A DNA stretch of 64,000 nucleotides from Escherichia phage BF15. Of this stretch, positions 57,885-59,227 are shown in pieces. The stretch is from the sequence record MW822007.1; one strand, 5' to 3'. A program made the position numbers and the translations under genes. The notes beneath the pieces were generated by a model, which saw only the letters and a program-made list of their open reading frames with translations, was not told where the DNA came from and did no database searches. The first letter of the stretch is position 1. The number at the start of each line of letters is the position of its first letter.

Positions 57885-57918
57885 TTGGAAAATAAAAAAG
57901 GACTCCCGAAGGAGTCCT
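57885..57918 (-). terminator. rho-independent terminator after basic 72-aa ORF (minus strand)
   Basis: AGGACTCC-TTCG-GGAGTCCT hairpin followed by TTTTTTATTTT on the minus strand. Confidence 0.8.
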
Positions 57919-57922
57919 CAAC

Positions 57923-58141
57923 TTATGCTTTCTGCTTACCAAAACGAGAAGCATCATCTCGAAGAACCGCACGTGCTCGGCGCATGATCTTCTCAACAGT
58001 TTGATTGATACGAGAGTTCGACCCACGCTTGTAACCAGCGCGTTTAGAATCACCAACTTTCTTTTCAACTGCTTTCTTTGCTTTAGCTTGTTTTGCCATT
58101 ATAAATTCTCTTTTAAATGAAAATGCAGGACTTATTGGCAT
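57923..58141 (-). CDS. hypothetical highly basic small protein
   Basis: 72 aa Lys/Arg-rich ORF (may start at internal MAKQAKAKK); followed by rho-independent terminator. Confidence 0.5.
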   Translation of the reverse strand: MPISPAFSFKREFIMAKQAKAKKAVEKKVGDSKRAGYKRGSNSRINQTVEKIMRRARAVLRDDASRFGKQKA

Positions 58142-58495
58142 TGCCTGCGAAAGCCCTCAAGGGGTACTTAGGTTTTGAATATTTACCGACAGGATAACCA
58201 TAAACCCGTCATCATACCTTATAGCTCTTATCTGTTGCACACCGTTAGCTTAAAGGTTCCGGGTTCGATTTCTCGAGGATAAGATATATACTGATGGATA
58301 TATAGGCCTTGAGGCGTACTCCCAATTGGCCATCACCTCGGGGTAGCATGCACTTGCCGCTATAAGAATAACATTCAAGAGGTACACCATAAAACTGCCG
58401 GGGTCTTAAAACTATAATGATTCGCAAATCATTAATCAGACAGTTCGATGGCTCCTCGATTTTAGCTCACACTAAGGCAGTGAATCTCCAATAAA

Positions 58496-58744
58496 TTACT
58501 TCAGTGTTACCACAAAGTGACGAACTGCTTTTCGTGCAGCAGAAGCCAGAGGCTTAGCATACTTAAGTTCATCTTTTTCCTGAAGCTCAGCAGCTAATGC
58601 AGTTTGAGCAGGATTCAGATGTTTGAAATAACGCAGGATTTCAAGAGCTTCGGCTTCAACATCAATAGATGCGCCATAGTTTTCGTGACCATTATTCCAT
58701 GCGTTTCGTTGCAGTTCAAGAGCGTGTTGTAATTGTTTAATCAT
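58496..58744 (-). CDS. rIII: rIII lysis-inhibition accessory protein
   Basis: 82 aa, same length and position (next to gene 31) as T4 rIII. Confidence 0.8.
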   Translation of the reverse strand: MIKQLQHALELQRNAWNNGHENYGASIDVEAEALEILRYFKHLNPAQTALAAELQEKDELKYAKPLASAARKAVRHFVVTLK

Positions 58745-58891: not shown

Positions 58892-59227
58892 TCACTTATA
58901 AAGACACGGAATAGCTTTATAGTGACAGGTAACGAATTTTTGTTTAATTTCTTTTGGCTGCTTAAGACCCAGAGCTACAAAAGGATGCGGAACGTTTCGA
59001 ATTTGACCAACTGGAAGAGAAGTCAAATCACCAACTTCGCAGAAACCTTCAGGAACATCAGGACCAACAGAGTGAACTACACACAGTTCAGGAACTTCAC
59101 CTTGAACACGTTTACCGATAATGAGTCCTGATTCTGTAACTTCTTCATCACCGGCTTGTGCAGGTTCAGAAACTAAAATAACATATTCACCGACAGCACG
59201 AATTGGTAGCTGTTGTACTTCAGACAT
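58892..59227 (-). CDS. 31: gp31 co-chaperonin (GroES analogue)
   Basis: 111 aa, same length and position as T4 gp31; MotA-type middle promoter upstream. Confidence 0.85.

Follow-up and report, generated by a model that had tools for sequence, protein, structure and literature searches.

The DNA analyzed here, called the window, is the whole stretch of 64,000 nt from Escherichia phage BF15 (MW822007.1). It is a T4-like (Tequatrovirus) genome segment, and its minus strand carries the genes cd, 31.2, 31.1, 31 (58892–59227), rIII (58496–58744), and 30.9. The sequence-only reading of this DNA had singled out positions 58142–58495, between rIII and 30.9, as the longest noncoding island. This interval is indeed the longest stretch of the window free of ORFs (at least 55 aa, ATG start, both strands), but its left edge had to be corrected. 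The 72-aa ORF that places this edge at 58141 is gene 30.9 prolonged upstream. Since this gene is annotated in T4, T4 strain 147, and LZ9 as a 177-nt frame starting with MAKQ, which corresponds to a start at 58099, the true gap extends from 58100 to 58495 (396 bp). The extension (58100–58141, minus strand; ATG at 58141) adds 14 codons to 30.9 and lacks a ribosome-binding site. The annotated 58-aa form has the motif AAGAG 8–9 nt upstream of its start. The protein, gp30.9, is very basic and has no match in Pfam.

Two hairpins of the minus strand lie in or near this region. An AU-rich 7-bp hairpin (58405–58433; AAUGAUU-UGCG-AAUCAUU, then AUAGUUUU), which is common to the window and T4, lies about 60 nt past the rIII stop. 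It could be a weak rIII terminator, and our terminator scan misses it because it contains fewer than three G–C pairs. A strong intrinsic terminator (57888–57919; GAGGACUCC-UUCG-GGAGUCC and a U run) follows directly after 30.9, and is also kept in Jiaodavirus and Moonvirus. The hairpin of this terminator is the source of the sole sub-threshold Rfam matches near the gap (Atu_C8 and Phe_leader).

The gap itself is modular. Megablast finds matches in 930 phage records, but these matches are piecewise; the closest records over the gap are ACG-C40 and KIT06 (98.7% identity). T4 contains only the two outer segments of the gap. The unit that the window has and T4 lacks spans 58218–58366 and consists of a conserved 135-nt core (58225–58359; RNA 5′ end CGGCAAGUGCAUG..., 3′ end ...CAACAGAUAAGAG) and a closing stem, P0. 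In the following, position p of the RNA corresponds to window coordinate 58360 – p. A search of the window with our covariance model (R1) returned the core as its single match (166.8 bits, E = 5e-40). Comparison among phage lineages showed that the minus strand of 58218–58366 encodes a conserved, structured noncoding RNA.

The predicted fold consists of three arms on a closing stem. P0 is formed by the flanks of the core (5′ arm, 58360–58366, CUUAUAG; 3′ arm, 58218–58224, CUAUAAG) together with C1–G135. Since P0, P1, P3, and P4 adjoin without linker bases, they form a perfect four-way junction. In the first arm, or 5′ domain (58305–58358), P1 (RNA 2–4/53–55; G2G3C4/G53C54C55) encloses an invariant internal loop (AAGNGCAU/CUCAAG) and P2 (13–22/35–46), which contains two bulges. 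The second arm is the P3 hairpin (56–62/69–75; 58285–58304). The third arm, or 3′ domain (58226–58284), is a three-way junction, in which P4 (76–82/128–134) encloses P5 (84–87/92–95; loop GAAA), P6 (96–100/116–121; 15-nt loop), and the invariant junction GCAACA (122–127). Finally, the loops of P2 and P3 are complementary over 6 bp: UGAUGG (25–30; 58330–58335) can pair with CCAUCA (63–68; 58292–58297). All of these coordinates refer to the minus strand.

RNAalifold returned P1–P6 independently from 22 distinct sequences without being given a structure. We then counted covariation in a model-based alignment of 24 distinct sequences. Standard pairs occupy 99.6% of 1006 cells, and half of the pairs (21 of 42) have changed on both sides: 6 of 10 in P2, 4 of 7 in P3, 4 of 7 in P4, and 3 of 4 in P5. 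None of 500 column shuffles reached the observed values, and only 28–43% of cells were paired when the structure was slid by 1–3 columns. P6 is compensated in Cronus (U96–A121) and in Yersinia phage fHe-Yen9-01 (A100–U116). The latter sequence was found after the alignment was made. It has an all-new P2 (GCAUCAAU/AUUGAUGC), a compensated P1 (U4–A53), and the loop pair CAAUGA/UCAUUG. Covariation supports seven helices, one of which is the L2–L3 pairing. This pairing is tested most cleanly, since interactions of its kind cannot be represented in a covariance model; it was absent from the model used for aligning. All 144 cells of this interaction are paired. Three of its six pairs have changed on both sides (CG/UA; GC/AU/UA; GC/AU), and one-sided changes do not occur.

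The closing stem behaves in the same way. The arms of P0 differ completely among lineages yet are still complementary: CUUAUAGC/GCUAUAAG in the window, CAAACAGC/GCUGUUUG in phage PKM.Lu.22.1, GUAUAAU/AUUGUAU in Cronus, CAUAUUA/UAGUAUG in EcS1, and UAAA/UUUA in Klebsiella phages. C1–G135 occurs in 22 of 22 sequences, and the next three pairs of P0 (AU, GC, UA, and CG types) are 91–100% paired. Over the stem, 87% of cells are paired, compared to 64% in shuffles (0 of 500 reach the observed value) and 23–45% in slid controls.

The types of pairs also identify the functional strand. Counted over the whole structure, G·U occurs in 35 cells and A·C in none (13 versus 0 without the constant U62·G69). 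This imbalance shows that the fold works on the minus strand, on which the neighboring genes are also encoded; on the plus strand it would contain mismatches. Conservation is higher in unpaired columns (34 of 51 invariant) than in paired ones (35 of 84), which places the sequence-specific constraint in junctions and loops. The helices drift by compensatory change; the unpaired bases of J1/2 (AAGNGCAU), J2/1 (CNNANG), the L2 flanks, L6 (GANCC...GCUAA), and J6/4 (GCAACA) are nearly invariant. L5 is peripheral, since the loop of P5 varies (GAAA, GUAA, UAAA, and others), and for the same reason we rejected a role of L5 in a GNRA tetraloop-receptor contact. Several other structural ideas were dropped. 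An early helix GAGG(20–23)/CCUC(46–49) and a GGCC/GGCC pseudoknot both clash with the covarying P2 and decay in the most divergent members; the L2–L3 pairing accounts better for the bases involved. A K-turn or loop-E motif in the internal loop between P1 and P2 does not fit the sequence by inspection.

Folding of the single sequence recovers most helices with an energy that is thermodynamically unexceptional (z = –1.6). The case for this predicted RNA is therefore not an energetic one; it rests on comparative evidence. The diversity behind this evidence is modest (about 25 distinct sequences), so that recent spread could account for some of the high identity. Nevertheless, we regard the existence, strand, extent, and fold of the predicted RNA as supported to near certainty.

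We also considered whether the element is a protein-coding gene, and rejected this possibility. Stop codons interrupt all six frames in nearly every lineage, the length of the element varies (132, 135, 136, and 144 nt), and its indels are not multiples of three. Several records call small "hypothetical proteins" over the element (JN986846, ACG-C40_0208a; PP723046, CDS0047; ON720975; MZ502379), and two records place the label "glycogen branching enzyme" over it. Since no frame is open across lineages of varying length, the "hypothetical protein" calls are spurious; both kinds of label appear to be annotation errors.

The earlier reading had pointed to two strings reminiscent of tRNA T-loops, and both are where it placed them: GGTTCGATT at 58262–58270 and GTTCGATG at 58443–58450. 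This likeness does not exceed chance. The heptamer GTTCGAT occurs three times in the window, compared to an expectation of 7.8 ± 2.7. Moreover, GGTTCGATT is read on the plus strand, opposite to the RNA. As RNA, this site is AAUCGAACC; it covers the last part of the L5 tetraloop, continues through the 3′ strand of P5, and reaches into P6. GTTCGATG is not part of the conserved element and falls in a segment that T4 also contains. ARAGORN found no tRNA or tmRNA gene on either strand of the whole window, and Rfam 15 gave no match in the window at gathering thresholds. With lax filters and E ≤ 10, nothing was reported within 58100–58495, including tRNA, tmRNA, and ribozyme classes. The paired loops on neighboring arms also distinguish the predicted fold from a cloverleaf, and our covariance model found only noise (≤7.7 bits, filters off) in the tRNA, rnaC, and rnaD region of T4. 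A degenerate tRNA is thereby dismissed.

Could the locus act as DNA instead, as an origin, a recombination site, or a homing site? The plus-strand strings and the presence/absence polymorphism described below could be taken as signs of a tRNA-like element or of such a site, but the excess of G·U over A·C pairs suits a transcribed RNA and not duplex DNA. We consider tRNA-like and DNA-level explanations effectively excluded. The GC-rich hairpins noticed at first sight are real, although they are not separate structures; together they belong to a single, larger fold that is conserved on the minus strand. The suggestion that came nearest to the evidence was a small regulatory or structured RNA, as indicated by the conserved covarying fold. 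A lack of conserved structure, or absence of the region from relatives, had been named as grounds for abandoning this idea; examination of both points favors a conserved structured RNA.

A blastn search with the core identified 407 phage records with 408 places, a single copy per genome. Searches seeded with the most divergent members recovered the same set of records and nothing further. The carriers include at least nine genera of Tevenvirinae: a subset of Tequatrovirus, the JS98 group, Moonvirus, Jiaodavirus, Marfavirus, Kanagawavirus, Karamvirus, Roskildevirus, and Kagamiyamavirus, together with Yersinia phage fHe-Yen9-01. In every T4-like case examined, the order 31–rIII–element–30.9 is maintained on one strand. 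The core alone is found with 90–95% identity in phages of Klebsiella, Enterobacter, Citrobacter, and Edwardsiella. In Jiaodavirus, Kanagawavirus, Moonvirus, and Marfavirus the element is 90–95% identical to that of the window, whereas genes 31, rIII, and 30.9 of the same genera are only 65–86% identical (mostly 65–75%). The element is the most conserved sequence of its neighborhood.

At the same time, the element is missing from T4 and from about 80% of Tequatrovirus records and is therefore dispensable. It is present in 20 of 50 rIII-anchored IMG/VR loci; the remaining 30 contain no diverged copy even with filters off. No blastn match was found in 5,426 E. coli genomes or among the plasmids of PLSDB, and we rejected the idea of a host-derived or host-mimicking sequence. 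All 35 GTDB loci that contain a 17-nt invariant string proved to be chance matches, as did most pattern matches in metagenomes and IMG/VR.

Pairs of filled and empty sites define the mobile unit. In T4 the site is precisely empty (GAATGT/GAATGATG); the aligned sequence of the window is GAATGT/TATTCTTATAGC-core-GCTATAAG/GTATGATG. A second pair occurs in a different family. PKM.Lu.22.1, an unrelated 76-kb phage of the Grimontviridae, contains a copy 14 nt after the stop codon of an SSB-like gene and upstream of a strong terminator (45 nt on) and an ECF-sigma gene. Its 98%-identical sister PKM.Hi.22.6 is without the element, and here, too, the inserted unit comprises both P0 and the core. Nor is the element present in the Grimontviridae relatives 7-11, SE131, GAP52, and A24. 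Judging by these alignments, the element is a recent gain of PKM.Lu.22.1. Since the nearest known relative of this copy is only 85% identical, the donor lineage must be unsampled. Both pairs show a module that is gained or lost as one precise unit and that has moved to an unrelated phage family. The polymorphism is a real echo of the earlier suggestion that the gap is a scar left by deletion of an intron or endonuclease. Yet a scar is not supported: the module is intact and no remnant, and it shows compensatory changes as well as strong purifying selection.

These properties could also belong to a catalytic RNA of a new kind, self-cleaving or other, or to a selfish mobile element, with an RNA structure that serves its own processing or propagation and not the phage. 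The compact, closed, and autonomous module, its invariant core, and its loop–loop tertiary contact would fit this explanation, as would the patchy distribution, the precise gain and loss, and the movement between phage families. Furthermore, cleavage at an intercistronic site would uncouple the adjoining mRNAs. On the other hand, no ribozyme class of Rfam matched, even at E ≤ 10. Selfish propagation is difficult to reconcile with one copy per genome, with the lack of an associated endonuclease, reverse transcriptase, or transposase, and with P0 arms that, unlike the inverted repeats of transposons, vary in sequence. Because target-site duplications are not evident at either filled/empty pair, the copy is single, and the P0 arms are unconserved, we rejected a miniature inverted-repeat transposable element. 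Overall, a catalytic or selfish RNA seems improbable.

The transcriptional setting raises a different alternative. The element is co-oriented within the 31–rIII–30.9 transcription unit, which ends at the strong terminator just after 30.9. A scan for promoters of the sigma-70 type, as distinct from the T4 middle and late types, found none upstream of the element on the minus strand, nor elsewhere on this strand of the gap, and so lends no support to the promoter region proposed earlier. In T4-like phages there is no intrinsic terminator between the element and 30.9. An element that is always co-oriented, intercistronic, and without its own sigma-70-type promoter may act in cis on the rIII–30.9 transcript. 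As a leader for 30.9, it could bind a ligand or a protein. Alternatively, it could modify the transcribing RNA polymerase in the manner of HK022 put, so that the terminator after 30.9, or the one 45 nt downstream in PKM.Lu.22.1, is read through. The strong terminator after 30.9, the terminator between the element and the ECF-sigma gene in PKM.Lu.22.1, and the combination of a variable closing stem with a conserved core, which is the usual layout of aptamers, are all consistent with such a role.

Indeed, the element shares this layout with classical riboswitches, in which a helix closes a conserved aptamer with conserved junction bases; the agreement is one of layout only. The aptamers of purine and lysine riboswitches are similar in having a variable closing helix, a multi-helix junction with conserved bases, and neighboring arms tied by loop–loop pairing. 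In the lysine class the longer arm bends toward the shorter one, and the large internal loop of the element could allow the same. In contrast to these aptamers, the element matches no Rfam aptamer model, its branch point contains no unpaired bases, and it is not connected to a conserved expression platform or an alternative pairing. Duplex energies of the 3′ strand of P4/P0 with the following 130 nt do not surpass those of shuffled sequences in 14 of 15 lineages, and in PKM.Lu.22.1 the complementarity is worse than in shuffles. A candidate antiterminator pairing in PKM.Lu.22.1 that was seen by eye (GAGGCUG with CAGCC..UC) was discarded because it is no better than shuffles. The absence of downstream complementarity argues against a classical expression platform.

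HK022 put provides a model that does not need a separate platform. This cis-acting antitermination RNA consists of two simple hairpins of about 70 nt and, like the element, it is a portable phage module within its own transcript and upstream of terminators. As put is generally described, the element is set apart from it by its size (135 nt) and its seven helices. Three further observations weaken any cis-acting role. The distance and the content between the element and the start of 30.9 vary between genera, with a second conserved module (block X, see below) placed before or after the element. The genes that follow the element in one phage family are unrelated to those in the other. And T4 expresses the same operon without the element. 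We therefore consider a cis-regulatory RNA possible, if on the unlikely side.

A more modest function would be that of a passive mRNA element that determines stability or processing, for example by blocking exonucleases or by providing a site for RNase III or RNase E, without a specific partner. The intercistronic and 3′-UTR position agrees with this explanation, and one record (OL960580) annotates a "terminator" under the match. However, a simple hairpin would suffice for such a task. The invariant unpaired bases, the covarying loop–loop pairing, and the 90–95% identity across genera represent a constraint in excess of it, and make a passive element very improbable.

The explanation we tentatively prefer is that the element is an accessory RNA, acting in trans or otherwise independently of its context, that binds a conserved partner; we would give this reading somewhat less than an even chance. 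According to this proposal the element would be transcribed within the rIII–30.9 mRNA and possibly freed by processing at P0. It would fold into a self-contained, pre-organized binding RNA, whose junctions and loop–loop pairing would keep its invariant single-stranded bases in place as a pocket or surface for one conserved partner. Candidates for this partner are a host macromolecule common across Enterobacterales or a small molecule. The pre-organized fold, the invariant single-stranded bases, the context independence, the dispensability, and the transfer between families would all be explained by a fixed binding surface. The precise filled and empty sites in two phage families and the changing order of modules around the element speak for its autonomy. 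If the element acts independently of neighboring sequence, as we propose, it would be an accessory noncoding RNA and not a classical riboswitch tied to 30.9. Not all observations favor this proposal. The element bears no likeness to E. coli genomes or plasmids that would suggest mimicry, and its constant place before 30.9, as well as its place 45 nt before a terminator in PKM.Lu.22.1, would also be expected of a cis-acting element.

A bolder version of this proposal assigns to the mobile accessory RNA a function that is new for RNA in lytic phages. As an aptamer, it could sequester a host immune signal or factor and would then be an anti-defense sponge or decoy made of RNA only; alternatively, it could represent a new ribozyme class. 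Such a function would explain the patchy spread, the family transfer, the context independence, and the near-invariant binding surface. At present we consider it speculative and unlikely. The profile of the element, which is conserved, tertiary-folded, dispensable, and mobile, resembles that of phage accessory or counter-defense genes, but with RNA as the product.

Other phage-encoded RNAs offer partial parallels. The T4 RNAs rnaC and rnaD (species 1 and 2) are of similar size (about 120–140 nt) and are processed from a longer transcript without a promoter of their own, as may also be the case for the element. Unlike the element, they reside in the tRNA cluster, and T4 contains both of them while lacking the element. 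None of the noise-level scores mentioned above fell on rnaC or rnaD, and homology was rejected. The prohead RNA of phi29 and the RNA-only multimers ROOL and GOLLD are structured RNAs borne by phages, in which covarying loop pairs bring about tertiary or intermolecular contacts. By analogy, the L2–L3 pairing could in principle also occur between molecules. The element has no sequence or model match to these RNAs and is much smaller than ROOL and GOLLD. Packaging of the T4 type is not known to need an RNA.

Searches of the full-text literature, including searches with sequence strings, returned no description of the element; their scope excludes a viral RNA catalogue from 2023 with more than 10,000 candidates (PMC10690425). 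Given this result and the lack of an Rfam match, we treat the element as a putative new family among the structured noncoding RNAs of phages. T-even phages are among the best-studied genomes, yet in about 400 deposited genomes the element either has no annotation or carries a wrong one. At the least, it deserves an entry as an RNA family, and the overlapping ORF calls should be removed. The natural filled/empty pairs, T4 versus ACG-C40-type phages and PKM.Hi.22.6 versus PKM.Lu.22.1, make its function directly testable.

The element is surrounded by other small modules whose order shifts between genera. Block X (58177–58217, minus strand; GUAUGAUG...GUUnUnGGUUAUC...CGUAAAA) contains a hairpin stem that covaries (GAC/GUC, GUG/CAC, GUC/GAC) and starts with AUGAUG, which opens a mini-ORF of variable length (3–10 codons). 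This block follows the element in the window, Merlin, Cronus, and EcS1, with the block present at the corresponding place in T4, and precedes it in Jiaodavirus, PEi20, and Marfavirus. The T4-like phage fHe-Yen9-01 shares a hairpin motif of about 23 nt (AGGUGAUnCGCUACCUUAAGUGCG), in nearly identical form, with two phages to which it is unrelated, PKM.Lu.22.1 and PKM.Hi.22.6 of the Grimontviridae. This motif is located between rIII and the element in fHe-Yen9-01 and after the element in PKM.Lu.22.1, and it also occurs in the empty site. A diverged version of this motif occurs just after rIII in the window (58459–58489, minus strand) and in T4. Finally, Klebsiella and Citrobacter phages contain a further, apparently structured insert between the element and 30.9 that is absent in the window and in T4. 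This insert is closed by GGGAGC...GCUCCC and contains internal hairpins (CAACU...AGUUG); a U-rich tract comes directly after it.
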